From Escherichia coli (GTDB taxonomy: Bacteria; Pseudomonadota; Gammaproteobacteria; Enterobacterales; Enterobacteriaceae), in the NCBI RefSeq assembly GCF_003334815.1, contig NZ_QOWO01000013.1: a stretch of 64,000 nt of DNA. The stretch is one strand, 5' to 3'. This document shows, piece after piece, positions 9,613 through 61,295 of this stretch. The stretch's first letter is position 1. Every line of letters starts with the position of its first letter. The position numbers and the translations under genes are program-made. Under the pieces are notes generated by a model. The model saw nothing but the letters and a program-made list of their open reading frames with translations. It had not been told where the DNA came from and did no database searches.

Positions 9613-10932
9613 ATGTTGCCGTTTCTGAAAGCGCCTGCCGATGCGCCATTAATGACTGATAAATATGAAATTGATGCCCGCTATCGCTACTGGCGTCGGC
9701 ATATTCTGCTGACCATCTGGCTGGGTTACGCGCTGTTTTACTTCACGCGGAAAAGTTTTAACGCCGCCGTACCAGAAATCCTTGCTAACGGCGTGCTCAG
9801 CCGTAGCGATATCGGCCTGTTAGCGACCCTGTTTTACATTACCTATGGCGTGTCGAAGTTTGTCTCCGGCATTGTCAGCGATCGCTCAAATGCCCGTTAT
9901 TTTATGGGGATAGGGCTTATCGCCACGGGCATTATCAACATTCTGTTTGGCTTCTCGACGTCGCTATGGGCGTTTGCCGTGCTCTGGGTGCTGAACGCCT
10001 TTTTCCAGGGCTGGGGTTCACCGGTGTGTGCGCGTCTGTTAACGGCCTGGTATTCACGTACCGAGCGCGGCGGTTGGTGGGCATTATGGAACACGGCGCA
10101 TAACGTCGGCGGCGCACTCATTCCCATTGTGATGGCAGCGGCTGCGCTGCATTACGGCTGGCGTGCCGGGATGATGATTGCTGGTTGTATGGCGATAGTC
10201 GTGGGGATTTTTCTCTGCTGGCGGCTACGCGATCGCCCGCAGGCGTTAGGTTTACCGGCGGTCGGTGAATGGCGACACGACGCGCTGGAAATTGCTCAAC
10301 AACAAGAAGGGGCAGGGTTGACGCGTAAAGAGATCCTCACCAAATATGTGTTGCTGAATCCGTATATCTGGCTGCTTTCGTTTTGCTATGTGCTGGTCTA
10401 TGTGGTCCGGGCGGCGATCAACGACTGGGGCAATTTGTATATGTCCGAGACACTGGGCGTCGATCTGGTCACGGCGAATACGGCAGTGACGATGTTTGAA
10501 CTGGGCGGATTTATCGGTGCGCTGGTAGCCGGTTGGGGCTCGGACAAATTGTTTAACGGCAACCGAGGGCCGATGAATTTGATTTTCGCCGCCGGAATTT
10601 TGCTTTCAGTCGGCTCCCTGTGGCTGATGCCATTTGCCAGCTACGTGATGCAGGCAACCTGCTTCTTCACCATTGGTTTTTTTGTCTTTGGCCCACAGAT
10701 GTTAATCGGTATGGCGGCGGCAGAGTGTTCCCACAAAGAGGCGGCAGGGGCGGCGACGGGGTTTGTCGGCTTGTTTGCTTATCTGGGGGCGTCGCTTGCT
10801 GGTTGGCCGCTGGCGAAAGTACTCGATACCTGGCACTGGAGCGGATTTTTTGTGGTTATCTCTATCGCCGCCGGGATTTCCGCACTGCTGTTACTGCCCT
10901 TTTTGAACGCCCAGACACCGCGCGAAGCGTGA
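9613..10932 (+). CDS. uhpC: Glucose-6-phosphate sensor / MFS protein UhpC
   Basis: 439 aa from the ATG at 9613; the ORF track's 9607 start is a TTG two codons upstream. Confidence 0.9.
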   Translation: MLPFLKAPADAPLMTDKYEIDARYRYWRRHILLTIWLGYALFYFTRKSFNAAVPEILANGVLSRSDIGLLATLFYITYGVSKFVSGIVSDRSNARYFMGIGLIATGIINILFGFSTSLWAFAVLWVLNAFFQGWGSPVCARLLTAWYSRTERGGWWALWNTAHNVGGALIPIVMAAAALHYGWRAGMMIAGCMAIVVGIFLCWRLRDRPQALGLPAVGEWRHDALEIAQQQEGAGLTRKEILTKYVLLNPYIWLLSFCYVLVYVVRAAINDWGNLYMSETLGVDLVTANTAVTMFELGGFIGALVAGWGSDKLFNGNRGPMNLIFAAGILLSVGSLWLMPFASYVMQATCFFTIGFFVFGPQMLIGMAAAECSHKEAAGAATGFVGLFAYLGASLAGWPLAKVLDTWHWSGFFVVISIAAGISALLLLPFLNAQTPREA

Positions 10933-10987
10933 TGCATCTCACCTTTTCACTTCATATCCGGCAAAACTAAGAAATTTTCCAGGTTTT

Positions 10988-11008
10988 GCCTGGACGCTAT
11001 CTCAGGCC
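10988..11008. promoter_or_regulatory. Candidate UhpA-binding inverted repeat in the uhpT promoter
   Basis: gcctgg-N9-caggc dyad about 60 nt upstream of the uhpT start; a tacaat -10-like hexamer lies downstream. Confidence 0.4.
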
Positions 11009-11069
11009 TGATTTGCTGCTGATTTTTACAATGCATGCCTCACGCAGGTATTCATTTCAGGAGTAACCC

Positions 11070-12461
11070 ATGCTGGCTTTCTTAAACCAGGTTCGCAAGC
11101 CGACCCTGGACCTTCCGCTCGAAGTGCGGCGCAAAATGTGGTTCAAACCGTTCATGCAATCCTACCTGGTGGTCTTTATCGGCTACCTGACGATGTACCT
11201 GATTCGCAAGAACTTTAACATCGCGCAGAACGATATGATTTCGACCTACGGGTTGAGCATGACGCAGCTGGGGATGATCGGCCTGGGTTTCTCCATCACT
11301 TATGGCGTGGGTAAAACGCTGGTTTCCTACTACGCCGACGGCAAAAACACCAAACAATTCCTGCCGTTCATGCTGATCCTCTCTGCTATTTGTATGCTGG
11401 GCTTCAGTGCCAGTATGGGCAGCGGCTCGGTTAGCCTGTTCCTGATGATTGCCTTCTACGCCTTAAGCGGCTTTTTCCAGAGTACCGGCGGTTCGTGCAG
11501 TTACTCCACCATCACCAAATGGACGCCGCGTCGTAAACGCGGGACATTCCTCGGTTTCTGGAATATTTCTCACAACCTTGGCGGTGCAGGCGCAGCAGGT
11601 GTGGCGCTGTTCGGGGCAAATTACCTGTTCGATGGCCATGTCATCGGCATGTTTATCTTCCCGTCGATTATCGCGCTGATTGTCGGTTTTATCGGCCTGC
11701 GTTACGGCAGCGACTCCCCGGAATCTTATGGCCTCGGCAAAGCTGAAGAACTGTTCGGCGAGGAGATCAGCGAAGAGGACAAAGAGACAGAATCTACCGA
11801 TATGACCAAGTGGCAGATCTTTGTTGAGTATGTGCTGAAAAACAAAGTGATCTGGCTGCTGTGCTTCGCCAACATTTTCCTCTATGTGGTACGTATTGGT
11901 ATCGACCAGTGGTCAACCGTATACGCGTTCCAGGAACTGAAACTCTCTAAAGCGGTGGCGATTCAGGGCTTTACGCTGTTTGAAGCTGGTGCGCTGGTCG
12001 GTACGCTGCTGTGGGGCTGGCTCTCTGACCTGGCGAACGGTCGCCGTGGCCTGGTGGCCTGCATCGCGCTGGCGCTGATTATCGCCACGCTCGGTGTGTA
12101 TCAACATGCCAGTAACGAATATATCTATCTGGCTTCTCTCTTTGCGTTGGGTTTCCTGGTCTTTGGCCCGCAATTGTTGATTGGTGTGGCTGCTGTTGGC
12201 TTTGTACCTAAAAAAGCGATTGGCGCTGCCGATGGTATTAAAGGCACCTTTGCTTACCTGATTGGTGACAGCTTTGCCAAGTTAGGTCTGGGAATGATTG
12301 CCGATGGGACGCCGGTATTCGGCCTTACCGGCTGGGCAGGCACCTTCGCCGCGCTGGATATCGCCGCGATTGGTTGTATCTGCCTGATGGCGATAGTGGC
12401 GGTAATGGAAGAACGCAAAATCCGCCGCGAGAAAAAAATTCAGCAGTTGACAGTGGCATAA
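11070..12461 (+). CDS. uhpT: Hexose-phosphate:phosphate antiporter UhpT
   Basis: 463 aa MFS organophosphate antiporter. Confidence 0.95.
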
Positions 12462-12479
12462 ACGTAACTGGTGACTTTT

Positions 12480-12505
12480 GCCCGGCATGACGCCGGGCTT
12501 TTTTT
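12480..12505 (+). terminator. uhpT rho-independent terminator
   Basis: gcccggc-atgac-gccgggc followed by 7 T. Confidence 0.7.
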
Positions 12506-12506
12506 A

Positions 12507-14273
12507 TTATTCCGTGACTTCCAGCGTAGTGAAGGCAAACTTCTCGCCATCAAATAGCCCCTGACTGGTTAGTTTTAGCGCGGGGATCACTGGCAGAGAA
12601 AGAAACGCCATCTGAATAAACGGCTCATCGGGTAACGGACCGCATTCACGGGCGGCGGCTTTCAAGGCGTCAATTTGTTCCGCCAGCGACTGCGCCGTGT
12701 CGGTGCTCATCAGCCCGGCAATGGGTAACGGCAGATGACTTTGTACCTGGCCGTTACGTACCACGCACAGCCCGCCGCCATCCTGAATCACCTGATTGAC
12801 CGCCAGCGCCATCTCTTCGGCACTGCGACCGATCACCACAATATTATGGCTGTCATGGCTGACCGTCGCAGCCAGCGCACCTTCATTCAGTCCAAAGCCG
12901 CCAAGCAAACCACAAGCCGGAGCCAGCCGTTGCCCGTAACGCTCAAGTACGGCAATAAAGCTCACATCATCGCGATCAAAACCATTTTCGCTGTAGACGC
13001 TGGAGTGGGAGTGCGTAATCAATTCGTTATGGATGACGTCAATGACCCGATAGCGTTTTCCGGGCGTAAATTGCAGGGCAAAGTCGCTGGCGGAAACTGG
13101 CTGGCGGGCAATGGTGTTGCCATATGGCGGAGCGGATTGTGCCAGTCTCGCCGACTCTTCCGCCTGTAAGGTTTGCGCATCAATCGGCTCGCCTTTCACC
13201 AGTACCTGCTGCACCGTGACCTTACGCGCATCGCTCAACAGGACGATATCGGCCTGCTTGCCGGGTGCCAGTAAGCCGAGGTGATTCAGACCAAAGTGGC
13301 GCGCCGTCGACCAGCTGGCGACGCGATATGCCACATGCAGCGGCACATTGTGTTGTTCGATCAGGCGGCGAATTAAGGCATCGATGTGTCCTTCATGGGC
13401 GATCTCCCACGGGTTACGGTCATCGGTACAGAGCATGCATTGCGGGCTGTTAAATTCGTTGATCAACGGTGCCAGCGCGTTGAGATTGCGGGCAGCGGAC
13501 CCTTCGCGGATCATCAACGACATGCCGAGTTGTAATTTCCGGCGTCCTTCTTCCAGCTGATAACTTTCGTGGCAGTTTTCAATACCCGCAGTAATATAGG
13601 CGTTAAGTTCTTTACCACCCAAACCCGGGCAGTGACCGTCCAGCGTCAGGTGGCGAAATGCATCCAGTTTATCGAGCAGCGCATTCTGCCCGCTAATTAC
13701 GCCAGGGTAGTCCATCATTTCTGCAAGGCCGGTAACCTGCGGATGGTCCCGCCAGGCGAGCATCTGTTCAAGGGTAAAACTGGCACCGTTAACATCGCAG
13801 CCTTCCAGGGCGGGTACGCAAGAGCTGACCTGTAAGTACTGGTTTTGCCTTGCCTGTTCGGCACAGCGGGCAAACCAGGCGAATCCGGCTTCGCCCATCA
13901 CGTTGACGATTTCATGAGGGTCGCAAATAACGGTCGTCAGGCCGCGCGGCAGGGTAGCGGTTTCAAAAGTGACCGGCGTCATCATGCTGGATTCAATATG
14001 CAGGTGAGCATCAATAAACCCTGGCACCGCCGTTGCGCCGCGAGCATCAATCCGCTGCAAAGCCGGAGCATCAGTGTATTCTGCGCCAACACCGGCAATG
14101 TAACGTCCTTTAATCACAATTGGGCCGGAAATTTCTCCGCCATTGATCAGGTCGAGAATAGAGACATTATCAATAATATAATCGGCAACAGCGTCGCCAC
14201 GGGAAACGGCTAACAATTCCTGGTATTCAGCCCGGCTAATGTGATGAAATTTATGGTTAATAGAATTATTCAT
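12507..14273 (-). CDS. ade: Adenine deaminase
   Basis: 588 aa; amidohydrolase-fold metal-binding His motifs. Confidence 0.95.
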
Positions 14274-14447
14274 ATTTTTCTCATTTTGATTTTATCAATT
14301 TGATTATTATTTATCATAAAGAAACGTCGCGAGATTATTAAAGAATATCCATTAATGTGCAATTGAAATGTGATAATTATCACTGAACCGTTGTTGTCAT
14401 TTGTTTTACAAAAGCAAGGGATTAAATCTCCTCCAATGGACAAAAAA

Positions 14448-15782
14448 ATGAATAATGACAATACCGATTACGTGAGTAATGAATCAGGGACGCTTTCGCG
14501 ATTATTTAAACTACCTCAGCATGGGACCACCGTCCGCACAGAATTGATTGCGGGGATGACCACTTTTTTAACCATGGTGTACATCGTTTTTGTGAACCCG
14601 CAAATCCTCGGCGCGGCACAAATGGACCCGAAAGTGGTGTTTGTTACCACCTGTTTGATTGCCGGTATCGGCAGTATTGCGATGGGGATATTTGCTAACT
14701 TACCCGTGGCGCTGGCTCCGGCAATGGGGCTGAACGCCTTCTTTGCCTTCGTGGTCGTGGGGGCGATGGGCATCTCCTGGCAGACCGGGATGGGCGCAAT
14801 ATTCTGGGGCGCAGTTGGACTATTTTTGCTCACGCTGTTTCGTATCCGGTACTGGATGATCTCCAACATTCCCTTAAGTTTACGTATTGGTATCACCAGC
14901 GGAATTGGATTATTTATCGCCTTAATGGGATTAAAAAATACTGGCGTTATTGTCGCCAATAAAGACACGCTGGTGATGATTGGCGATTTAAGTTCTCACG
15001 GCGTGTTGTTAGGTATTTTAGGGTTTTTTATTATAACCGTGTTGTCATCACGTCATTTTCATGCCGCGGTGCTGGTTTCTATTGTGGTGACGTCTTGCTG
15101 TGGATTATTTTTCGGTGATGTTCATTTTAGCGGCGTCTATTCCATTCCGCCTGATATTAGCGGCGTCATTGGTGAAGTAGATTTGAGCGGCGCGTTAACA
15201 CTTGAACTCGCCGGTATCATTTTCTCCTTTATGCTGATCAACCTATTTGATTCATCAGGAACATTAATTGGTGTAACTGATAAAGCGGGCTTAATAGATG
15301 GTAACGGTAAATTCCCCAATATGAATAAGGCGCTGTATGTTGATAGCGTCAGTTCGGTGGCGGGTGCGTTTATCGGCACCTCGTCTGTTACTGCCTATAT
15401 TGAAAGTACTTCTGGTGTGGCAGTCGGTGGCCGCACGGGGCTGACTGCGGTTGTGGTTGGCGTTATGTTCCTGTTGGTTATGTTCTTCTCACCGCTGGTG
15501 GCGATAGTTCCTCCTTACGCAACCGCCGGAGCGTTAATCTTTGTTGGCGTGCTGATGACTTCGAGCCTGGCGCGCGTTAACTGGGATGATTTTACCGAAT
15601 CGGTGCCTGCGTTTATTACCACGGTGATGATGCCCTTTACTTTCTCGATCACCGAAGGGATTGCACTCGGCTTTATGTCGTACTGCATCATGAAAGTATG
15701 CACCGGGCGCTGGCGCGATCTGAACCTGTGTGTGGTGGTGGTCGCAGCTCTGTTTGCACTGAAGATTATTCTGGTGGATTAG
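14448..15782 (+). CDS. adeQ: Adenine permease (NCS2/AzgA family)
   Basis: 444 aa from MNNDNTDY...; alternative in-frame starts at 14436 and 14370. Confidence 0.85.
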   Translation: MNNDNTDYVSNESGTLSRLFKLPQHGTTVRTELIAGMTTFLTMVYIVFVNPQILGAAQMDPKVVFVTTCLIAGIGSIAMGIFANLPVALAPAMGLNAFFAFVVVGAMGISWQTGMGAIFWGAVGLFLLTLFRIRYWMISNIPLSLRIGITSGIGLFIALMGLKNTGVIVANKDTLVMIGDLSSHGVLLGILGFFIITVLSSRHFHAAVLVSIVVTSCCGLFFGDVHFSGVYSIPPDISGVIGEVDLSGALTLELAGIIFSFMLINLFDSSGTLIGVTDKAGLIDGNGKFPNMNKALYVDSVSSVAGAFIGTSSVTAYIESTSGVAVGGRTGLTAVVVGVMFLLVMFFSPLVAIVPPYATAGALIFVGVLMTSSLARVNWDDFTESVPAFITTVMMPFTFSITEGIALGFMSYCIMKVCTGRWRDLNLCVVVVAALFALKIILVD

Positions 15783-15834
15783 TAACTGGCGAGGGTTTCC
15801 AGATATCATGAGTTCTGATTACGCAGGAGAACTC

Positions 15835-16287
15835 ATGATCTGGATAATGCTCGCCACGCTGGCGGTAGTGTTTGTGGTTGGTTTTCGGGTGCTGACATCC
15901 GGGGCCAGAAAAGCGATTCGCCGTCTCAGCGATCGGCTGAACATCGATGTCGTACCCGTGGAGTCGATGGTCGATCAAATGGGAAAGTCAGCTGGTGACG
16001 AATTTTTACGTTATTTGCATCGTCCGGATGAGTCGCACCTGCAAAACGCCGCGCAGGTGTTGCTCATCTGGCAAATTGTCATTGTCGATGGTAGCGAACA
16101 GAACCTGCTGCAATGGCATCGGATTTTACAAAAAGCTCGCCTCGCCGCGCCGATTACCGACGCTCAGGTCAGGCTGGCGCTAGGTTTTCTGCGCGAAACC
16201 GAACCTGAAATGCAGGATATTAATGCTTTTCAGATGCGCTATAACGCGTTCTTTCAGCCTGCCGAGGGCGTTCACTGGTTGCATTGA
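15835..16287 (+). CDS. yicN: DUF1198 small membrane protein, 150 aa
   Basis: AGGAGA Shine-Dalgarno 5 nt upstream of the ATG at 15835. Confidence 0.8.
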   Translation: MIWIMLATLAVVFVVGFRVLTSGARKAIRRLSDRLNIDVVPVESMVDQMGKSAGDEFLRYLHRPDESHLQNAAQVLLIWQIVIVDGSEQNLLQWHRILQKARLAAPITDAQVRLALGFLRETEPEMQDINAFQMRYNAFFQPAEGVHWLH

Positions 16288-16294
16288 AACCGTT

Positions 16295-16365
16295 TCGTCT
16301 TATCAGCCTACAGACCGCGCCTGACCTGTCGGGTGGATAAGACGTTCACGCCGCATCCGGTAATC
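16295..16365. repeat. REP/BIME element
   Basis: Paired palindromic units (tcttatcagcctac ... ggataagacgttcacgccgcatccgg). Confidence 0.5.
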
Positions 16366-16497
16366 TTTGCCCTGTTCCGTTTCGATCTTAACTCCAGCTC
16401 AAGCAACACCGTAAAAGTTGCAAAAACGTTAAATGCGTCACACATTTCAATGTTAAAGTGGTCGGCTTTTCCCCTGAAACATGCCACGGGTAACACC

Positions 16498-17688
16498 ATG
16501 AGTGAATTTATTGCCGAAAACCGCGGCGCGGATGCCATCACCCGACCGAACTGGTCAGCCGTTTTCTCGGTGGCGTTTTGTGTCGCCTGTCTGATTATCG
16601 TTGAGTTTTTGCCCGTCAGTTTGTTGACGCCAATGGCCCAGGATTTAGGCATTTCGGAAGGGGTTGCCGGGCAATCGGTGACCGTGACCGCCTTTGTGGC
16701 AATGTTTGCCAGTTTGTTTATTACCCAGACAATTCAGGCTACTGACCGCCGCTACGTTGTTATTTTGTTTGCCGTTTTGCTGACGCTCTCCTGCTTGCTG
16801 GTTTCCTTTGCTAACTCATTCAGTTTGCTTTTAATCGGTCGTGCCTGTCTGGGGCTGGCGCTGGGCGGGTTCTGGGCGATGTCGGCGTCGCTGACCATGC
16901 GTCTGGTGCCGCCGCGTACGGTGCCGAAGGCGCTGTCGGTGATCTTCGGCGCGGTTTCTATTGCGCTGGTGATTGCCGCGCCGTTGGGCAGTTTTTTAGG
17001 CGAGCTTATCGGTTGGCGCAATGTCTTTAATGCGGCGGCGGTGATGGGCGTGCTGTGTATTTTCTGGATTATCAAATCATTGCCTTCACTGCCAGGCGAA
17101 CCCTCGCATCAGAAACAAAATACTTTCCGCTTATTACAACGTCCGGGTGTGATGGCAGGGATGATCGCCATCTTCATGTCTTTCGCCGGGCAGTTTGCTT
17201 TCTTCACGTATATTCGCCCGGTGTATATGAACCTGGCGGGATTCGGCGTGGATGGCTTAACGCTGGTGCTGTTGAGTTTTGGTATCGCCAGCTTTATTGG
17301 TACGTCGCTTTCGTCGTTCATTCTTAAACGTTCGGTAAAACTGGCCTTAGCAGGCGCGCCGTTAATACTGGCTGTGAGTGCGTTGGTACTGACGTTGTGG
17401 GGAAGCGATAAAATCGTTGCTACCGGCGTGGCGATTATCTGGGGGCTAACTTTTGCATTGGTTCCCGTCGGCTGGTCAACGTGGATCACCCGCTCGCTGG
17501 CCGATCAGGCAGAAAAAGCCGGGTCTATTCAGGTGGCGGTTATTCAGCTTGCTAATACCTGTGGCGCGGCAATCGGCGGTTATGCGCTGGATAATATTGG
17601 TCTGACTTCGCCGTTGATGTTGTCCGGCACATTGATGTTGCTGACTGCATTGTTGGTTACTGCAAAGGTGAAAATGAAGAAATCCTGA
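16498..17688 (+). CDS. nepI: Purine ribonucleoside efflux pump NepI (MFS)
   Basis: 396 aa from [10 protein letters not shown]... Confidence 0.85.
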
Positions 17689-21284: not shown

Positions 21285-21920
21285 TCTTCTGAATCACCGG
21301 GCGAAAAAATATAACTGAGTTACAAATAAGTACCAGTCGAATGAGTATTGTATTAAGAATTTTTGAGTATCGCTGATACAACCAGAAAGCAATGCTAGCG
21401 CAATATTATAGGGCCAGCAATTGAGATTATTAGTAAAAGCATGTTAAGAATTAATTACCGAATTTATATATTAATTATAGTAAGGCAATGAGCTATTTTT
21501 GATAGTAAAAATAAAACAAGTTGATTTGATATATTAAATGAACAAATTAATCTTGATGGCAGTCTGATTATTGGTGAAGTTTATAGTCAGTTTTTTTCGC
21601 CAGCGGTTAAAGAAATAGAATAGTCGTATAAAAAAGGGTGTTCTGGGGCGAGTAAAACAACATCTTCACCTTAATGGCGATACAGTTGGCTGAGAGTCAG
21701 CAGGGGGGCAAATCACCTGCAAATAAACACGGCGCATACTGGCGTGAATATCGCGGATGCGTTCGAGGACAGAAGAACCGACAGGCGGATTCTTCAGCCG
21801 CTCATCGTCCATCACAAAACCTTAGACCAGGTATTCCTGAAGCCGATTGAATATTGAGCAGTAGAAAATATCTGGATTGACAGTATTACAAGGGGTTGGA
21901 GAACGTCAGGAGAGGCATTT

Positions 21921-52300: not shown

Positions 52301-53090
52301 ATTAAAAGAGCCGCTTGCCACACTTTGGCGTGGTAAAGATGCTTTTGCAGAGGTCAAAAAACTGAACGGCGAGGTCTTTCGTGAACTGGAGACTCGTCGT
52401 ACATTACGCTTTGAACTGTCCGGGAAAAGCTATTTTCTTAAATGGCACAAGGGGACGACATTAAAAGAGATTATAAAAAATCTACTCTCATTGCGGATGC
52501 CCGTTTTGGGCGCAGACAGAGAGTGGCACGCTATTCATCGCCTGAGTGATGTTGGCGTTGATACAATGAAGGGCATTGGGTTTGGCGAAAAAGGGTTAAA
52601 TCCATTAACTCGCGCATCATTTATTATTACCGAAGATCTCACTCCCACAATTAGCCTTGAAGATTATTGTGCCGATTGGGCAGTCAACCCGCCTGATATA
52701 CGTGTTAAGCGTATGCTGATCGCACGTGTAGCAACTATGGTGCGTAAAATGCATACTGCAGGGATAAATCACCGCGACTGTTACATTTGCCACTTTTTGC
52801 TTCATTTGCCATTTACTGGCCGGGAAGATGAATTAAAAATTTCAGTTATCGATCTGCATCGGGCACAGATACGTGCAAAAGTACCGCGCCGCTGGCGCGA
52901 TAAAGACCTGATTGGTTTATATTTCTCATCAATGAATATTGGCCTGACGCAAAGAGATATCTGGCGATTTATGAAGGTTTATTTTGGGATGCCTTTACGC
53001 AAAATATTGTCTCTTGAACAGAATTTATTGAACATGGCAAGCGTTAAGGCCGAGCGTATTAAAGAGCGAACACAACGCAAAGGATTATAA
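52293..53090 (+). CDS. waaP: LPS core heptose(I) kinase
   Basis: 265 aa; 8-nt overlap with waaG. Confidence 0.95.
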
Positions 53091-53126
53091 AAATATTTAT
53101 TAGTATGTACTGGAACTAACTTTATT

Positions 53127-54062
53127 ATGACTATTTATTTTATAAATTGGGTTGCAGATTATGAATTAAAAATGATTCAGTACCTGAAAAAAAAGTACAA
53201 GATAAAAAATATAACAACACCAAAAAAATATAACTGGATTAATAAAAAAATATCAAAAATAGGGATGGATAATGCATGGCTGGGGCGATTATTCATCAAG
53301 CATTACCTCAATGATATTAAAAAAGATGACATAATTATCATTAATGACAGTGTTGTTAATAAAGGTATCAATAAACAAATATTAAAAAATATTAACTGTC
53401 ATAAAGTTTTGCTTCTAAGAAATACTGTTGGCGAAGATTTTATTCTTGATAACGCGAATTATTTCGATATTATATATGATTTTGAGCATAGATTTATAGG
53501 GAATGAAAAGATCAAGGCAATAGAACAATTTTTTCCTATAGGAATGGATGAAATTAGAAATTATAGTTTATCTGACAAAAATAACAGCCAGCCAATATGT
53601 TTTTTCCTTGGTCGTGATAAAGGGCGTCTTCAAATAATTAATGAGTTAGCCGAGAGATTAACAACACTAGGATGTAAGCTAGATTTTAATGTTGTCAAAG
53701 ATAAGACATCATCTACGACTTCAAAGTATTTGATTGAAAAACAAATATCTTATGAAGAGAATATTAGAAGAACATTAAATGCTAATATAATTGTTGATAT
53801 AACCAAAGAAAACCAATCTGGCTGGACTCTTCGTATACTTGAGGCACTATTTTTCAATAAAAAATTAATTACTAATAATATAAATGTATTTGGTTCAGAA
53901 ATCTATAGTGAATCTCGCTTTTTTATAATAGGTCATGATGATTGGGATAAGTTAGAGTATTTTATTAACTCATCTGTTAAACCAATGGATTATGATAGTT
54001 TATATAAATTCAGTCCAGATAAAATGATGTCAACGATTGTTTCTGATTTTATAGACAAATAA
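53127..54062 (+). CDS. waaS: LPS core biosynthesis protein WaaS (K-12 core type)
   Basis: 311 aa; very AT-rich. Confidence 0.8.
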
Positions 54063-54105
54063 AACCGTTAAAACAGTGAGTTTTACTCAATTAATGAGAG
54101 TTTCT

Positions 54106-55185
54106 ATGAAAATAGCGTTTATCGGCGAAGCTGTTTCTGGATTTGGCGGCATGGAAACTGTCATCCGTGATGTTATTACTACCTTCAGGCAACAACATAT
54201 CCAAAGTGAAATGTTTTTCTTTTGTCGTAATGACAAAATGGATAAGGGATGGCTGGAAGGTATTAAATACTCATGTTCATTTTCCAATATTCGTTTAGGT
54301 TTTTTGCGTCGGGCGAAACATATTCATGCTCTAAGTAAATGGCTTCAGGAGTACCAACCAGATATCGTTATTTGTATTGATGTGATCTCCTGCCTGTTTG
54401 CCGCAAAAGCACGTAAAAAATCAGGAATTGATATGCCAGTATTTTCATGGCCACATTTTTCTTTAGATCACAAAAAACATGCTGAATATATCACCTGTGC
54501 CGACTATCATTTAGCAATCAGCTCTGGCATTAAACAGCAAATGATTAATCGAGGTGTAGCAGAATCGACGATAAATGTTATTTTTAATCCCGTCGAAACT
54601 AAAGACTCAGTCATTCCCGCGCCCGAGGAAGGTGAAACGGCAACGTTTATTTATGTTGGGCGTATGAAATTTGAAGGCCAGAAAAGAGTTAAAGACCTGC
54701 TTGATGGCTTATCACAAGCGAAAGGTAACTGGAAACTCCATGTATTGGGTGATGGCTCCGATTTCGAAAAATGCCAGGCTTATGGTAGAGAATTAAATAT
54801 TGATGATCGAATTGTCTGGTATGGTTGGCAACAATATCCCTGGGAATTGGTCCAGCAAGATATTGAAAAAGTGAGTGCGTTATTGCTCACGTCATCTTTT
54901 GAAGGTTTCCCAATGACCCTACTTGAAGCCTTGTCGTGGGGGATTCCTTGTATCAGTGCCGATTGTGTCTCCGGGCCTGCTGACATTATTCAACCTGATG
55001 TCAATGGCCATCTGTATCAACCGGGAGATATTGCTGGTTTTGTAACTCTTCTAAATAAATATATAGCAGGTGAAATTCATATCGAACATGAAAAAATTCC
55101 TGCGTCGATCGATGAATTTTACCAATCGAAGTATTACGATAGATTACATAAGGTAATTATTTCTGCTATTTCCCGGAGGAAATAA
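54106..55185 (+). CDS. waaB: LPS alpha-1,6-galactosyltransferase
   Basis: 359 aa from MKIAFIGEAV... Confidence 0.85.
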   Translation: MKIAFIGEAVSGFGGMETVIRDVITTFRQQHIQSEMFFFCRNDKMDKGWLEGIKYSCSFSNIRLGFLRRAKHIHALSKWLQEYQPDIVICIDVISCLFAAKARKKSGIDMPVFSWPHFSLDHKKHAEYITCADYHLAISSGIKQQMINRGVAESTINVIFNPVETKDSVIPAPEEGETATFIYVGRMKFEGQKRVKDLLDGLSQAKGNWKLHVLGDGSDFEKCQAYGRELNIDDRIVWYGWQQYPWELVQQDIEKVSALLLTSSFEGFPMTLLEALSWGIPCISADCVSGPADIIQPDVNGHLYQPGDIAGFVTLLNKYIAGEIHIEHEKIPASIDEFYQSKYYDRLHKVIISAISRRK

Positions 55186-56204
55186 TGCAGCAGGTGTTTT
55201 TCCAGGAAACTGAGTTTCTTAATTCAGTTATTGATTATGATCATAAAGTAGAAACAGAAAATCTTTGTCTGGACATCGCTTATGGAACTGACAAAAACTT
55301 TCTATTTGGTTGCGGAATTTCGATTGCTTCAATATTAAAATATAATGAAGGAAGTCGATTGTGTTTCCATATTTTTACTGATTATTTTGGTGATGATGAT
55401 CGTAAGTATTTTGATGCCCTGGCGTTGCAGTATAAAACCAGAATTAAAATATATCTGATTAATGGTGATCGACTGCGCTCATTGCCTAGCACTAAGAATT
55501 GGACTCATGCAATATATTTTCGTTTTGTTATTGCAGATTACTTTATTAATAAGGCGCCTAAAGTCCTTTATCTGGATGCAGATATCATTTGTCAGGGGAC
55601 TATTGAGCCACTAATTAATTTCTCATTTCCTGACGATAAAGTCGCAATGGTTGTTACAGAAGGGCAAGCTGACTGGTGGGAAAAACGCGCCCATTCGTTA
55701 GGTGTTGCGGGAATTGCTAAAGGTTACTTTAACTCCGGTTTTTTATTGATTAATACTGCCCAATGGGCGGCTCAGCAGGTTTCTGCACGAGCTATTGCAA
55801 TGCTAAATGAGCCAGAAATAATCAAAAAAATAACACATCCTGATCAGGATGTGTTAAATATGTTGCTGGCGGATAAACTTATTTTCGCTGATATTAAATA
55901 TAACACCCAGTTCAGCTTAAATTATCAACTCAAAGAAAGCTTTATAAACCCAGTAACCAACGATACTATTTTTATCCATTATATCGGGCCAACCAAGCCC
56001 TGGCATGATTGGGCCTGGGATTATCCTGTATCACAAGCCTTTATGGAGGCAAAAAATGCTTCGCCATGGAAGAATACGGCGTTGCTGAAACCGAACAATA
56101 GCAATCAATTAAGATATAGCGCAAAACATATGCTTAAAAAGCATAGATATCTAAAAGGATTTAGCAACTATCTTTTTTATTTTATTGAAAAGATAAAGCA
56201 TTAA
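55185..56204 (+). CDS. waaO: LPS alpha-1,3-glucosyltransferase (GT8)
   Basis: 339 aa; TAATG overlap with waaB. Confidence 0.85.
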   Translation: MQQVFFQETEFLNSVIDYDHKVETENLCLDIAYGTDKNFLFGCGISIASILKYNEGSRLCFHIFTDYFGDDDRKYFDALALQYKTRIKIYLINGDRLRSLPSTKNWTHAIYFRFVIADYFINKAPKVLYLDADIICQGTIEPLINFSFPDDKVAMVVTEGQADWWEKRAHSLGVAGIAKGYFNSGFLLINTAQWAAQQVSARAIAMLNEPEIIKKITHPDQDVLNMLLADKLIFADIKYNTQFSLNYQLKESFINPVTNDTIFIHYIGPTKPWHDWAWDYPVSQAFMEAKNASPWKNTALLKPNNSNQLRYSAKHMLKKHRYLKGFSNYLFYFIEKIKH

Positions 56205-56243
56205 AACTGGGAAACTATAAAGTAATGATATAAGGGTAGCATT

Positions 56244-57260
56244 GTGGACTCATTTCCTGCCATAGAGATAGATAAAGTTAAAGCCTGGGATTTTCGGCTA
56301 GCTAATATAAATACTTCTGAATGTTTAAATGTTGCCTATGGTGTCGATGCTAATTATCTTGATGGTGTAGGTGTTTCCATCACATCAATTGTCCTAAATA
56401 ATCGATATATTAATCTTGATTTTTATATTATTGCTGATGTTTATAATGATGGTTTTTTTCAAAAAATTGCAAAGCTTGCAGAGCAAAACCAATTAAGAAT
56501 CACGTTATATAGAATTAACACTGATAAGCTCCAGTGCTTGCCTTGTACACAGGTCTGGTCAAGAGCAATGTACTTCCGTTTATTTGCATTTCAATTATTG
56601 GGTTTAACGCTTGATCGTTTGCTTTATCTTGATGCAGATGTTGTTTGTAAAGGCGATATTAGCCAACTATTACATCTGGGTTTAAATGGAGCGGTTGCTG
56701 CTGTTGTTAAAGATGTTGAGCCAATGCAAGAAAAGGCGGTATCCAGGTTGTCTGATCCTGAATTACTTGGGCAGTACTTTAATTCCGGTGTCGTTTATTT
56801 AGACTTAAAAAAATGGGCTGACGCAAAACTAACAGAAAAAGCGTTGTCTATTCTTATGAGTAAAGATAATGTTTATAAATACCCTGATCAGGATGTTATG
56901 AATGTCTTACTGAAAGGGATGACATTATTTTTGCCTCGTGAGTACAATACAATTTATACAATTAAAAGTGAATTAAAAGACAAAACACATCAAAACTATA
57001 AAAAGCTGATTACAGAAAGTACTCTTCTTATTCATTATACAGGTGCAACTAAACCGTGGCACAAATGGGCAATTTATCCATCGGTAAAATACTATAAAAT
57101 AGCTTTAGAAAATTCCCCCTGGAAAGATGACTCTCCACGAGATGCGAAATCAATTATTGAATTTAAAAAAAGATATAAACATCTTTTAGTGCAACATCAT
57201 TATATCTCAGGAATTATAGCAGGAGTCTGTTATCTTTGCCGAAAATATTACCGTAAATAA
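56244..57260 (+). CDS. waaJ: LPS alpha-1,2-glucosyltransferase (GT8)
   Basis: 338 aa; GTG start; paralogous to waaO. Confidence 0.85.
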   Translation: MDSFPAIEIDKVKAWDFRLANINTSECLNVAYGVDANYLDGVGVSITSIVLNNRYINLDFYIIADVYNDGFFQKIAKLAEQNQLRITLYRINTDKLQCLPCTQVWSRAMYFRLFAFQLLGLTLDRLLYLDADVVCKGDISQLLHLGLNGAVAAVVKDVEPMQEKAVSRLSDPELLGQYFNSGVVYLDLKKWADAKLTEKALSILMSKDNVYKYPDQDVMNVLLKGMTLFLPREYNTIYTIKSELKDKTHQNYKKLITESTLLIHYTGATKPWHKWAIYPSVKYYKIALENSPWKDDSPRDAKSIIEFKKRYKHLLVQHHYISGIIAGVCYLCRKYYRK

Positions 57261-57277
57261 CATTTAACTGGTTTATT

Positions 57278-57976
57278 ATGATTCAGAAGAGCAAGATCAA
57301 AGACTTGGTTGTTTTTACCGATGAAAACAATTCAAAGTACCTCAATGTATTAAATGACTTCTTGTCTTATAATATAAATATCATCAAGGTTTTTCGTTCT
57401 ATTGATGATACAAAAGTTATGCTTATTGATACCGATTACGGTAAATTGATTCTTAAGGTTTTTTCTCCGAAAGTTAAGCGTAACGAACGTTTCTTTAAGT
57501 CTCTGTTAAAAGGTGATTATTACGAACGCCTTTTTGAGCAAACCCAAAAAGTACGAAATGAAGGGTTAAATACACTCAATGACTTTTATTTATTGGCTGA
57601 ACGGAAAACCTTACGTTTTGTCCATACTTATATCATGATCATCGAGTATATTGATGGCATAGAGTTGTGTGATATGCCCGATATTGATGATGCGCTAAAA
57701 AATAAAATTCAGCAATCAATTAATGCCTTACATCAACATGGCATGGTTTCTGGCGACCCCCATCGTGGTAACTTCATTATAAAAAATGGTGAGGTTCGAA
57801 TTATCGATCTCTCCGGAAAGCGTGCTTCAGCGCAGCGTAAAGCGAAAGATCGTATTGACTTAGAGCGTCATTACGGTATTAAAAATGAGATTAGAGATCT
57901 AGGCTATTATCTTTTAGTATATCGTAAAAAAATGCGCAATTTTATTCGGCGTTTGAAAGGGAAACCAGCGCGCTAA
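57278..57976 (+). CDS. waaY: LPS core heptose(II) kinase
   Basis: 232 aa. Confidence 0.85.
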   Translation: MIQKSKIKDLVVFTDENNSKYLNVLNDFLSYNINIIKVFRSIDDTKVMLIDTDYGKLILKVFSPKVKRNERFFKSLLKGDYYERLFEQTQKVRNEGLNTLNDFYLLAERKTLRFVHTYIMIIEYIDGIELCDMPDIDDALKNKIQQSINALHQHGMVSGDPHRGNFIIKNGEVRIIDLSGKRASAQRKAKDRIDLERHYGIKNEIRDLGYYLLVYRKKMRNFIRRLKGKPAR

Positions 57977-58046
57977 AAAAAATCCCACAATTACATGTCT
58001 TCACCAGGACAGTTTTAAGCGGAGTTATTTATTTCACAGGTTTATC

Positions 58047-58898
58047 ATGAAGAATATTAGATACATTGACAAAAAAGATGTTGAAAACCTGATTGAAAAT
58101 AAAACATCTGATGATGTTATTATTTTTCTTTCGGGCCCTACATCGCAAAAAACACCTTTGTCAGTATTACGAACAAAGGATATTATTGCTGTCAATGGTT
58201 CTGCGCAATATCTGTTAAGTAATAATATCGTTCCTTTTATATATGTACTTACAGATGTCCGATTTTTACATCAGCGTCGTGATGATTTTTATAAATTTAG
58301 CCAGAGAAGTCGTTATACCATAGTAAACGTTGACGTTTATGAACACGCTTCCAAAGAAGATAAACTTTATATCCTCCAGAACTGCCTCGTATTACGGTCC
58401 TTTTACCGTCGGGAAAAAGGTGGTTTTATAAAGAAGATTAAATTTAATATTTTGAGACAGATTCACAAAGAACTGCTGATCTCTGTACCGTTGTCTAAAA
58501 AAGGTCGTCTGGTTGGATTTTGCAAGGACATTAGTCTTGGTTATTGCTCATGCCATACTATTGCCTTTGCTGCAATTCAAATCGCATATTCACTTAAGTA
58601 TGCGCGGATTATTTGTTCTGGTCTTGATTTAACGGGTAGCTGTTCTCGTTTCTATGATGAGAATAAAAATCCCATGCCCTCGGAATTAAGTAGGGATTTA
58701 TTCAAAATATTGCCATTTTTTCGTTTTATGCATGATAATGTAAAAGATATTAATATTTATAATTTATCAGATGATACAGCTATTTCTTACGATGTAATTC
58801 CATTTATTAAACTTCAAGACATCAGTGCAGAAGAATCAAAAGATATGACAAGAAAAAAAATGCAATATAGAACTTCAACCGATTCTTATGCTAATTAA
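58047..58898 (+). CDS. waaZ: LPS core biosynthesis protein WaaZ
   Basis: 283 aa. Confidence 0.8.
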   Translation: MKNIRYIDKKDVENLIENKTSDDVIIFLSGPTSQKTPLSVLRTKDIIAVNGSAQYLLSNNIVPFIYVLTDVRFLHQRRDDFYKFSQRSRYTIVNVDVYEHASKEDKLYILQNCLVLRSFYRREKGGFIKKIKFNILRQIHKELLISVPLSKKGRLVGFCKDISLGYCSCHTIAFAAIQIAYSLKYARIICSGLDLTGSCSRFYDENKNPMPSELSRDLFKILPFFRFMHDNVKDINIYNLSDDTAISYDVIPFIKLQDISAEESKDMTRKKMQYRTSTDSYAN

Positions 58899-58930
58899 TC
58901 ATCCTGAAACTAAAATAATATGGTATAAAA

Positions 58931-60004
58931 ATGCGCTTAGGAACTTTTCACAAAAAGAAAAGATTTTATATAAACAAAATCAAGATTAATTTCCTTTCTT
59001 TTTTATTTCGTAATAAAATAAATAATCAAATTACAGATCCAGCACAAGTTAAATCATGCCTTATTATTCATGATAATAATAAACTTGGTGATCTAATTGT
59101 ATTAAGTTCGATTTATCGTGAACTTTATAGTAAAGGGGTTAAAATAACTCTTCTCACAAATAGAAAGGGTGGGGAATTTCTCTCTAATAATAAAAATATA
59201 TTTGAGTTCTGTATTAAAGAATCAACCGGTTTTCTTGAAATGCTTACTCTATGTAAGCATCTGCGGGATTTACAGTTCGATATTGTATTAGACCCCTTTG
59301 AAACTATGCCCTCATTTAAGCATAGCTTAATATTATCAAGTTTAAAAGATTCTTACATTCTGGGTTTTGATCATTGGTATAAGCGTTACTATTCATTTTA
59401 CCATCCCCACGATGAATGTTTAAAAGAACATATGAGTACACGAGCAATAGAAATACTGAAGCATATTTATGGTGAGGGTAAATTTTCCACCAACTACGAC
59501 TTGCATTTACCAGTAGATGTTGAAGATAAAATAAAAGAATTTATTGGAGATACAAGAATAGTCATTATTAATCCATTAGGTGCAAAAAAAATATGCCGTC
59601 TTACGTTTGAGCAAATAAAAGTTATATATCAAGAAGTGAAAACACACTTTGAAAATTATCGGATTATATTTACCGGGTTACCGCAAGATTTATTGACAAT
59701 ACCAATACTTGAAATCGAAACACTACCATTTGATGAGTTTATTTATACCGTTGCGTTGACCAAGTATAGTGATTTTGTCATTTCTGTTGATACAGCTCTT
59801 GTTCATATCGCTGCGGCTTATCATAAACCAACGCTTGCATTTTACCCTAATTCACGTACTCCGGAATATCCCTCGCATTTAATTTGGTCCCCGAATCATC
59901 ATAAATCTATACAAATAGTATCCCCAACATATACGGTAAAAGATATCGATACTGAAACTTTAACTAATTCAGTAAAGAGATTAAGTTGTATAGATAAGAA
60001 GTGA
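58931..60004 (+). CDS. waaU: LPS heptosyltransferase IV
   Basis: 357 aa. Confidence 0.8.
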   Translation: MRLGTFHKKKRFYINKIKINFLSFLFRNKINNQITDPAQVKSCLIIHDNNKLGDLIVLSSIYRELYSKGVKITLLTNRKGGEFLSNNKNIFEFCIKESTGFLEMLTLCKHLRDLQFDIVLDPFETMPSFKHSLILSSLKDSYILGFDHWYKRYYSFYHPHDECLKEHMSTRAIEILKHIYGEGKFSTNYDLHLPVDVEDKIKEFIGDTRIVIINPLGAKKICRLTFEQIKVIYQEVKTHFENYRIIFTGLPQDLLTIPILEIETLPFDEFIYTVALTKYSDFVISVDTALVHIAAAYHKPTLAFYPNSRTPEYPSHLIWSPNHHKSIQIVSPTYTVKDIDTETLTNSVKRLSCIDKK

Positions 60005-60022
60005 GTTTTAACTCACTTCTTA
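59997..60022. terminator. Palindrome between convergent waaU and waaL
   Basis: aagaagtgagtt-tt-aactcacttctt perfect 12-bp stems, overlapping the waaU stop codon. Confidence 0.5.
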
Positions 60023-60035
60023 AACTTGTTTATTC

Positions 60036-61295
60036 TTAATTAATTGTATTGTTACGATTATTAATGACGAGTAAGAGGACTATAGCGGATATAATGATAA
60101 TTGGAATGCTGCGTGCCCATATGATCACATCACTGAGTCCAATCCCCACAATGCCAAGCGTTAATATCAACAAACCCAAAGCTCGTTTTTTATATGCTAT
60201 ATAAAATAGTGAAAAATAGAGGAAAAGTGTGGAAAAAATTCCCATCAGACCTTTCAGTGACCCTGCTTCAATTATCTCATTATGTAGATGTACGTTAGAA
60301 AACTCCAATGCCCCTCTTAGCCTATTGTGTTCTGCAACTAACAAATTCATACTTTCAGCGCGTGACTCTGCTGATCTAAATGAAAAAGGTGACTTTATGA
60401 ATATATTTAAACCAATTTCGTACATTGCCAGTCTTGCACCTAGGGAAGTAACACTATTAGCATTGGTATAACTGTTTAAGTCATTTAATGCTTCATTATA
60501 GCGATTCTGTATTGGTTTATTAAATATAATAACAATGCTAGCTAATATAGCAATTAGTAGAACAATAGAGGAAGTGAATTTCTTGGGTGATTTATTATAA
60601 TAAGCTATTAATGCAGCAACACAAATTATAGGGAACAGGAGTAGGGTTGCTCTGGTTTGTGTTAGCGCCAGAACATAAAGTACCGCGCAACTATTTAATA
60701 AAAATAAAAAAGGATGATTTTTCTTAGTATAAAGAATCGCAACGCCACTAACTATCCCTATTAGCATTGTTGAATATGCTGCTCCTGTTGCCGTTCCTAC
60801 ACCAAAAGAAATGCGGTCATTTTCATGAATGCTATTAATATACATTGCATATCCAGCAATTAGAAATGACAGAGAATACAAAGTGTATAATACACTCTCT
60901 TTTTTTGATTTTAGCTGGCTAGTTAGTGTCAAGAAAACAATAAAAGAACCAAATATAAATATTTTGGCAGTATTTAAATAACTATGGTAAGTAGCACGAA
61001 ATGGCGAATTATCTACTTTAAACGCAGAATACCAAATTAAATCAAGCAAGCCTATTAAAAATATAGAAAGGGGAAGAATAAGGTTTTTTATATTATAATT
61101 TTCTTGTCTGCCACGTAAAATTAGTGACAATAAGCAAACTATAGCAGTGATATTATATATTTTTATGCTGAAAGTATTATCGACGAATGCAATTATCATT
61201 GAAAAAAAACATAATATATAAGTTATTATCTCTAAAATCATTGATGATTTCAGAGTGTAAGGTTTCAATGAATGAAGTTTAAAGGATGTTAGCAT
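60036..61295 (-). CDS. waaL: O-antigen ligase
   Basis: 419 aa polytopic membrane protein. Confidence 0.9.
   Translation of the reverse strand: MLTSFKLHSLKPYTLKSSMILEIITYILCFFSMIIAFVDNTFSIKIYNITAIVCLLSLILRGRQENYNIKNLILPLSIFLIGLLDLIWYSAFKVDNSPFRATYHSYLNTAKIFIFGSFIVFLTLTSQLKSKKESVLYTLYSLSFLIAGYAMYINSIHENDRISFGVGTATGAAYSTMLIGIVSGVAILYTKKNHPFLFLLNSCAVLYVLALTQTRATLLLFPIICVAALIAYYNKSPKKFTSSIVLLIAILASIVIIFNKPIQNRYNEALNDLNSYTNANSVTSLGARLAMYEIGLNIFIKSPFSFRSAESRAESMNLLVAEHNRLRGALEFSNVHLHNEIIEAGSLKGLMGIFSTLFLYFSLFYIAYKKRALGLLILTLGIVGIGLSDVIIWARSIPIIIISAIVLLLVINNRNNTIN

Follow-up and report, generated by a model that had tools for sequence, protein, structure and literature searches.

The gene ade (adeD, yicP) is a textbook cryptic gene, and the question of how it is switched on in nature makes the spacer between ade and its divergent neighbour adeQ (yicO) relevant. 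According to the accounts given in PMC2753651 and PMC13274399, Petersen, Moller and Valentin-Hansen described ade in 2002 (J Biol Chem 277:31373) as a cryptic gene under H-NS silencing that becomes active through insertion elements. More specifically, both papers refer to that work for the derepression that an hns mutation causes at ade, and PMC2753651 cites it for the relief of the H-NS repression of ade by IS5. In addition, the phenotype of a yicO::kan mutant was put down to read-through from the kan cassette into the neighbouring yicP, an apparent activation (PMC3809563). The function of adeQ as an adenine permease was established by Papakostas in 2013, as referred to in citing papers.

We consider it probable that adeD and adeQ share one control region, in which an AT-rich patch silenced by H-NS is combined with a CRP box, and in which CRP would act as activator after relief of the silencing. 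The region was already known as a published H-NS-silenced locus and the published picture is otherwise unchanged. The additions made here are modest and consist of a conserved CRP box, a second conserved palindrome and strong purifying selection on a region that is labelled 'cryptic'.

The adeD-adeQ locus

The window referred to below is the whole analysed stretch of E. coli DNA, with a length of 64,000 nucleotides. Within it, a spacer of exactly 174 bp separates the divergent genes adeD and adeQ (Table 1), and both the ORF list and the RefSeq annotation give the boundaries that had been assigned in a first, sequence-only reading of this DNA. The part of the window from 10737 to 16737 is 100% identical to positions 3,841,500-3,847,500 of E. 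coli K-12 MG1655, in reverse orientation, such that a K-12 position equals 3,841,500 + (16,737 - window position). The spacer itself corresponds to MG1655 3,843,790-3,843,963, likewise with 100% identity.

At the other end of adeD, the MG1655 annotation puts the small RNA UhpU (b4829, from the uhpT 3' region) at window 12242-12507 on the plus strand, where it occupies the whole 45-bp convergent uhpT-adeD spacer and adjoins the adeD stop codon. This 45-bp spacer shows 100% identity in E. whittamii and in strain E1V33.

Table 1. Positions of genes, control elements and natural insertions in the window (strand given where assigned)
Feature	Position	Strand	Basis
uhpT	11070..12461	+	ORF list, RefSeq annotation
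adeD (ade, yicP, b3665), adenine deaminase, 588 aa	12507..14273	-	ORF list, RefSeq annotation
adeQ (yicO, b3664), adenine permease, 444 aa	14448..15782	+	ORF list, RefSeq annotation
adeD-adeQ spacer, 73% A+T, divergent regulatory region	14274..14447	.	
Continuous AT-rich patch, ~270 bp, presumed H-NS-bound tract	14221..14491	.	composition; H-NS binding from literature
Conserved block: palindrome, third TTGAT, ade ribosome-binding region, candidate extended -10	14277..14305	-	cross-genus alignment
Candidate extended -10 for ade, TGaTAAAAT	14297..14289	-	promoter scan
Candidate sigma-70 promoter for ade: -35 TTAATA (14341..14336), 17-nt spacer, -10 TATGAT (14318..14313)	14313..14341	-	consensus match only
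CRP box TGTGATAATTATCACT, centre 14376.5	14369..14384	.	9/10 match to TGTGA-N6-TCACA, conservation, SELEX listing
Candidate -10 for adeQ, TACAAA (TAAAAA in other genera)	14407..14412	+	read by eye on alignment
AATGGA, weak Shine-Dalgarno-like, 9 nt before adeQ ATG, followed by A-run	14434..14439	+	conserved in alignment
IS5-family element in adeD	13953-13961		mapped natural genome
IS1A in adeD	14104-14112		two strains
IS903B in adeD, target duplication	14200-14209		mapped natural genome
IS5 in adeD, CTAA	14210-14213		mapped natural genome
ISApl1 in adeQ	14918-14920		mapped natural genome
ISVsa5 in adeQ	15563-15573		mapped natural genome

Base composition and silencing by H-NS

The GC content of the spacer is 27.0%, versus 49.1% for the whole window, and an equally AT-rich composition is reached by just 2.1% of the 174-bp windows across the 64 kb. 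The 33-kb neighbourhood has 19 annotated spacers with a length of 50 bp or more (mean GC content 43%), and the adeD-adeQ spacer has the lowest value of these. The low GC content continues on either side, and with <38% GC in 40-bp windows as the limit, the AT-rich patch extends ~50 bp (~17 codons) into adeD and ~45 bp (~15 codons) into adeQ. The first 50 codons of adeD have a GC content of 41%. Stretches more extreme than the ade spacer, at 19-30% GC in 174-bp windows, occur elsewhere in the window at 52966-61225 and 21298-21504; on the basis of the coordinate conversion, we take the former to be the waa/rfa LPS-core region of K-12.

The sequence-only reading had described the spacer as very AT-rich and as carrying A/T tracts, and the first description is fully borne out. 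Tracts are indeed present, with six A/T runs of at least four nucleotides (T5 at 14275; T4 at 14284, 14290 and 14404; A4 at 14410; A6 at 14442). Their number does not exceed what the composition predicts: mononucleotide shuffles yielded 3.7 +/- 1.7 runs (P = 0.15), and the tracts should therefore be viewed as a by-product of composition and were dropped as a feature in their own right. TpA steps, which favour the binding of H-NS, are depleted in the spacer (13 vs 23 expected, P = 0.0008).

For the high-affinity H-NS nucleation motif TCGATAAATT no close match was found within the spacer. The only matches with two mismatches near the spacer are located at 14248-14257 and 14289-14298, and the window-wide count is near chance (98 vs 78 expected), so that the motif was discarded as support from the sequence. 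Nevertheless, neither the nucleation motif nor TpA-rich steps are strictly required for the binding of H-NS. The AT-rich patch is the one feature on the side of the sequence that points to H-NS at ade, with the binding as such coming from the literature. The earlier claims on silencing fared accordingly. That adenine deaminase is cryptic and silenced by H-NS in K-12 agrees with Petersen 2002 as cited in PMC2753651 and PMC13274399. That the spacer is H-NS-type DNA stands as far as the AT-rich patch is concerned, which is as expected of an H-NS target, with the nucleation motif as a reservation. Moreover, a generic view of AT-rich DNA is incomplete, as it omits both the conserved CRP box and the strong purifying selection.

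Promoter regions are generally AT-rich, and the ade strand of the spacer carries four promoter-like hexamer pairs where 2.1 +/- 1.4 are expected. The spacer might then simply be an ordinary AT-rich bidirectional promoter, from which adeD and adeQ are expressed without a meaningful role of H-NS. The ade transcript is in fact detectable on arrays, with a ~2-fold difference (fold change 1.97) when aerobic and anaerobic cultures of MG1655 in glucose minimal medium are compared (PMC3688515, Table S12), which argues for some condition-dependent transcript despite the label 'cryptic'. We consider this explanation highly improbable. The published genetics say the opposite (Petersen 2002, as cited in PMC2753651 and PMC13274399), and the AT content of the spacer is well above that of the neighbouring spacers. 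In addition, insertion elements upstream of adeD have been selected repeatedly when adenine was available, as such mutations were enriched in E. coli that evolved with an adenine-excreting partner (PMC13274399). This implies a low basal expression, and silencing of a shared control region by H-NS remains our preferred reading.

Natural genomes were also searched for insertions. Among complete E. coli genomes otherwise 100% identical to the window, insertions were found in seven, of which six were mapped (Table 1). Those in adeD all lie within ~320 nt of the start of the gene, where they would disrupt it and not activate it. Among the mapped genomes there was no insertion inside the spacer, all being located in the coding sequence of adeD or adeQ, and for that reason the natural insertions say nothing on the activation model.

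Conservation of the control region

It is generally known that H-NS prefers AT-rich, acquired DNA (see also PMC4720273 for a statement to this effect), and ade has been reported as silent in PMC2753651 and PMC13274399. The AT-richness of the spacer could on these grounds be that of horizontally acquired DNA under xenogeneic silencing, and the spacer would then have no regulatory content of its own. The distribution of the low GC content argues against this, as it is limited to the ~270 bp of the patch, whereas the rest of adeD has 56% and the rest of adeQ 49% GC. Moreover, the region is present in 5409 of the 5426 complete E. coli genomes, with at least 99% identity in 5053 of these, and in 26 of the 5409 the 474-bp stretch around the spacer is not found intact. 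The gene order uhpT-adeD-adeQ-yicN is common to Escherichia and Citrobacter, and the adeD-adeQ pair is found in Cedecea, Kluyvera and Morganella as well, and hence in five genera. In Escherichia, Citrobacter, Cedecea and Kluyvera the divergent pair is separated by a spacer of 172-176 bp with 26-30% GC, and adeD has 51-58% GC despite this AT-rich spacer. In Morganella morganii the divergent pair is kept, with a spacer of 218 bp and 44% GC, in which no recognisable CRP box was found in the alignment. Hence it is only in the group of Escherichia, Citrobacter, Kluyvera and Cedecea that the spacer has this AT-rich design.

No other segment of the 6.7-kb locus is as well conserved within Escherichia as the spacer. 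The spacer identity amounts to 95-100%, versus about 70-85% at third codon positions (P 8e-10 to 8e-22, where P is the probability of so few spacer differences at the third-position rate). More specifically, the spacer of E. albertii is 98.3% identical, with 69-72% at the third codon positions of the flanking genes (P 8e-22), and that of the divergent strain E69 is 95.4% identical, with 78-85% at third positions (P 8e-10). At the positions of the window, the spacer is 100% identical in E. whittamii (third positions 73-78%, P 2e-19) and in the cryptic-clade strain E1V33 (third positions 73-81%). In Citrobacter and Kluyvera the spacer identity is 67-75%, compared with 54-55% at the third positions of adeD and adeQ (P 6e-8 and 5e-4). 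These rates indicate that the spacer is under strong purifying selection. Since synonymous sites are less conserved than the spacer, the AT-richness of the latter is a maintained regulatory feature and not a sign of foreign DNA, and an origin by acquisition is largely refuted; we regard it as having hardly any probability.

The same conservation bears on the nature of the silencing. H-NS targets usually evolve fast, and the extreme conservation of the spacer consequently fits poorly with a view of it as silenced DNA and nothing else. The slow evolution, together with the retention of the CRP box and of the second palindrome across genera, argues that the silencing within the shared control region is a regulated state and not a form of decay.

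Two small reading frames were considered as possible hidden proteins and rejected. An ORF of 63 aa on the minus strand across the spacer (14270..14461) is frame-shifted in two Escherichia species and has stops in other genera, and a mini-ORF of four codons (MRKI) that overlaps the ade ATG is broken in two species.

The CRP box

The middle of the spacer contains a CRP box that was absent from the earlier reading and had already been recorded in a supplement to a SELEX study. It is the only match to TGTGA-N6-TCACA with one mismatch in the 64-kb window. As 1.7 such matches are expected by chance per 64 kb, it is conservation and SELEX that carry the case for CRP. The genomic-SELEX study of CRP from 2011 (PMC3105977, supplement file 4) has a peak in the yicO<>ade spacer and gives its box as AGTGATAATTATCACA, which is the reverse complement of TGTGATAATTATCACT, and the SELEX coordinate agrees.

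Neither half-site (TGTGAT, ATCACTG) varies among the window sequence and seven sequences from Citrobacter, Cedecea and Kluyvera, whereas the central four nucleotides vary between the genera (aatt/tgca/aact/tgta). This combination of invariant half-sites and a variable core was reproduced by 10 of 20,000 column shuffles (P ~5e-4), and it reads as the classic footprint of a dimeric factor. The CRP box is thus credible through two independent lines, the in vitro SELEX listing and the cross-genus conservation.

In E. albertii, a change from G to T at the equivalent of 14372 turns the left half-site TGTGAT into TGTTAT. Counting this change, the 174-bp spacer of that species has only three differences.

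The conserved block beside the ade start

A second region of conservation is found next to the start of ade. Across four genera, the alignment is invariant over the 21 nt of 14277-14297 and again over 14300-14305, with variation only at 14298-14299, and none of 20,000 column shuffles gave an invariant run as long as the first. The block comprises the palindrome TTGATtttATCAA at 14286-14298, which is unique in the 64-kb window (0.03 expected), followed by a third TTGAT at 14300-14304, such that half-sites of the type TTGAT and ATCAA alternate.

These features could mean that the main control is exerted by a specific regulator that acts on TTGATtttATCAA and the third TTGAT, in which case the H-NS silencing would merely be the state without inducer. 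The near-total conservation of the spacer within Escherichia points the same way, in that it implies a dense functional content and circumstances under which the genes are put to use. However, the block lies only 4-32 nt from the ade ATG. The ribosome-binding region and the candidate -10 may explain part of its conservation and, together with the 5' UTR, could explain much of it. Nor does any known E. coli factor fit the palindrome. In comparisons by eye, FNR was rejected on the spacing, which is TTGAT-N3-ATCAA at TTGATtttATCAA and N4 in the consensus; PurR has only half a match, at AAGAAACGT, which is specific to Escherichia; and the match to Fur (~11/19) is as expected in AT-rich DNA. We therefore judge such a regulator unlikely as the main control, and retain H-NS silencing combined with CRP as the preferred reading. 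The more general suggestion that a dedicated regulator or an anti-silencer acts on the region, to which the near-total conservation of the control region and the invariant block would point, is somewhat less doubtful and is put forward tentatively. If it were true, both the adenine deaminase and the permease would be turned on by this factor in some natural setting that is not reproduced by laboratory media.

A genomic-SELEX peak of PlaR (YiaJ) has been reported for the spacer, as a further case of binding in vitro. The PlaR box ATnTGAAACnnnGTTCAnTT was rejected, as the spacer has only a partial and non-conserved match to it around 14383-14400.

Promoter candidates and start signals

The supplement text of PMC3415461 contains no transcription start for ade or yicO, and the promoter positions given here are predicted from the sequence. 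Of the candidates on the ade strand, the sigma-70 promoter has a -10 hexamer that is not kept outside Escherichia, while the extended -10 forms part of the conserved block. On the plus (adeQ) strand of the spacer, the promoter scan at a threshold of 9/12 gave no candidate. With the -10 read by eye on the alignment, the start of adeQ would be near 14418-14420, and the CRP box would be centred at ~-42, which is a Class II arrangement. Relative to the start of ade, the box would be near -70 or -94, depending on which candidate -10 is used.

A translation start of adeQ at the upstream ATG at 14436 was rejected, since it is out of frame in Citrobacter in the alignment. The string CTCCTCC just upstream of adeQ corresponds to GGAGGAG on the minus strand (14425-14434), a strong Shine-Dalgarno-like string. 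It is probably there by chance, as it is not followed by a suitably spaced start codon and is not conserved outside Escherichia.

A model for the control of ade and adeQ

In the model that we favour, H-NS would coat the AT-rich patch and thereby occlude both promoters, and adeD would be silent under laboratory conditions as a result of this occlusion. The silencing and the activation by insertion elements are taken from the literature, as it is represented in the citing papers; the manner of occlusion is our conjecture. The silencing would be lifted by a mutation in hns, or where an insertion element interrupts the AT-rich tract. The CRP box, in the middle of the patch, would have a Class II position for adeQ and would lie upstream, in a Class I-like position, for ade. 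Given this position of the box, CRP would provide cAMP-dependent activation once the silencing is lifted, which would extend the binding reported in vitro to a role in vivo. The CRP box and the palindrome TTGATtttATCAA are defined sequences that can be mutated.

Comparison with known systems

The candidate adeQ promoter resembles Class II CRP promoters of the galP1 and melR type, in that a near-consensus box lies ~42 bp upstream of the presumed start, and in that a weak conserved -10 is present with no recognisable -35. The Class II criterion is a spacing of -41.5, and at adeQ the spacing derives from the presumed start, so that the class assignment is a prediction. Features of the known systems that are found at ade-adeQ are the extended AT-rich tract, the match to the CRP consensus and the conservation of the CRP half-sites. 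An H-NS nucleation motif and TpA-rich steps are not among them, and neither are the xenogeneic traits of an atypical gene composition and a patchy distribution.

The nearest counterpart of ade among other loci is the bgl operon of E. coli. The bgl operon is cryptic and silenced by H-NS, is activated by insertion of IS1 or IS5 or by mutation of hns, and has a CRP-dependent promoter. In both systems, cryptic catabolic genes have an AT-rich silencer at the promoter as well as a CRP site, and the silencing is relieved by insertion elements or when H-NS is lost. The account of PMC2753651 places ade beside bgl. Unlike bgl, ade and adeQ form a divergent pair on one spacer, on which the role of CRP is a prediction. 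Also unlike bgl, ade-adeQ shows no evident antiterminator or leader RNA element, and a permissive Rfam scan of 13900-14800 revealed no riboswitch or sRNA. Finally, the locus analysed here is the cryptic ade (yicP) locus of K-12 itself, being the same DNA with 100% identity over adeQ, the spacer and adeD. In comparison with the published description of this locus (Petersen 2002), what has been added is the cross-genus footprint, the strength of the selection and the link to the SELEX of CRP.
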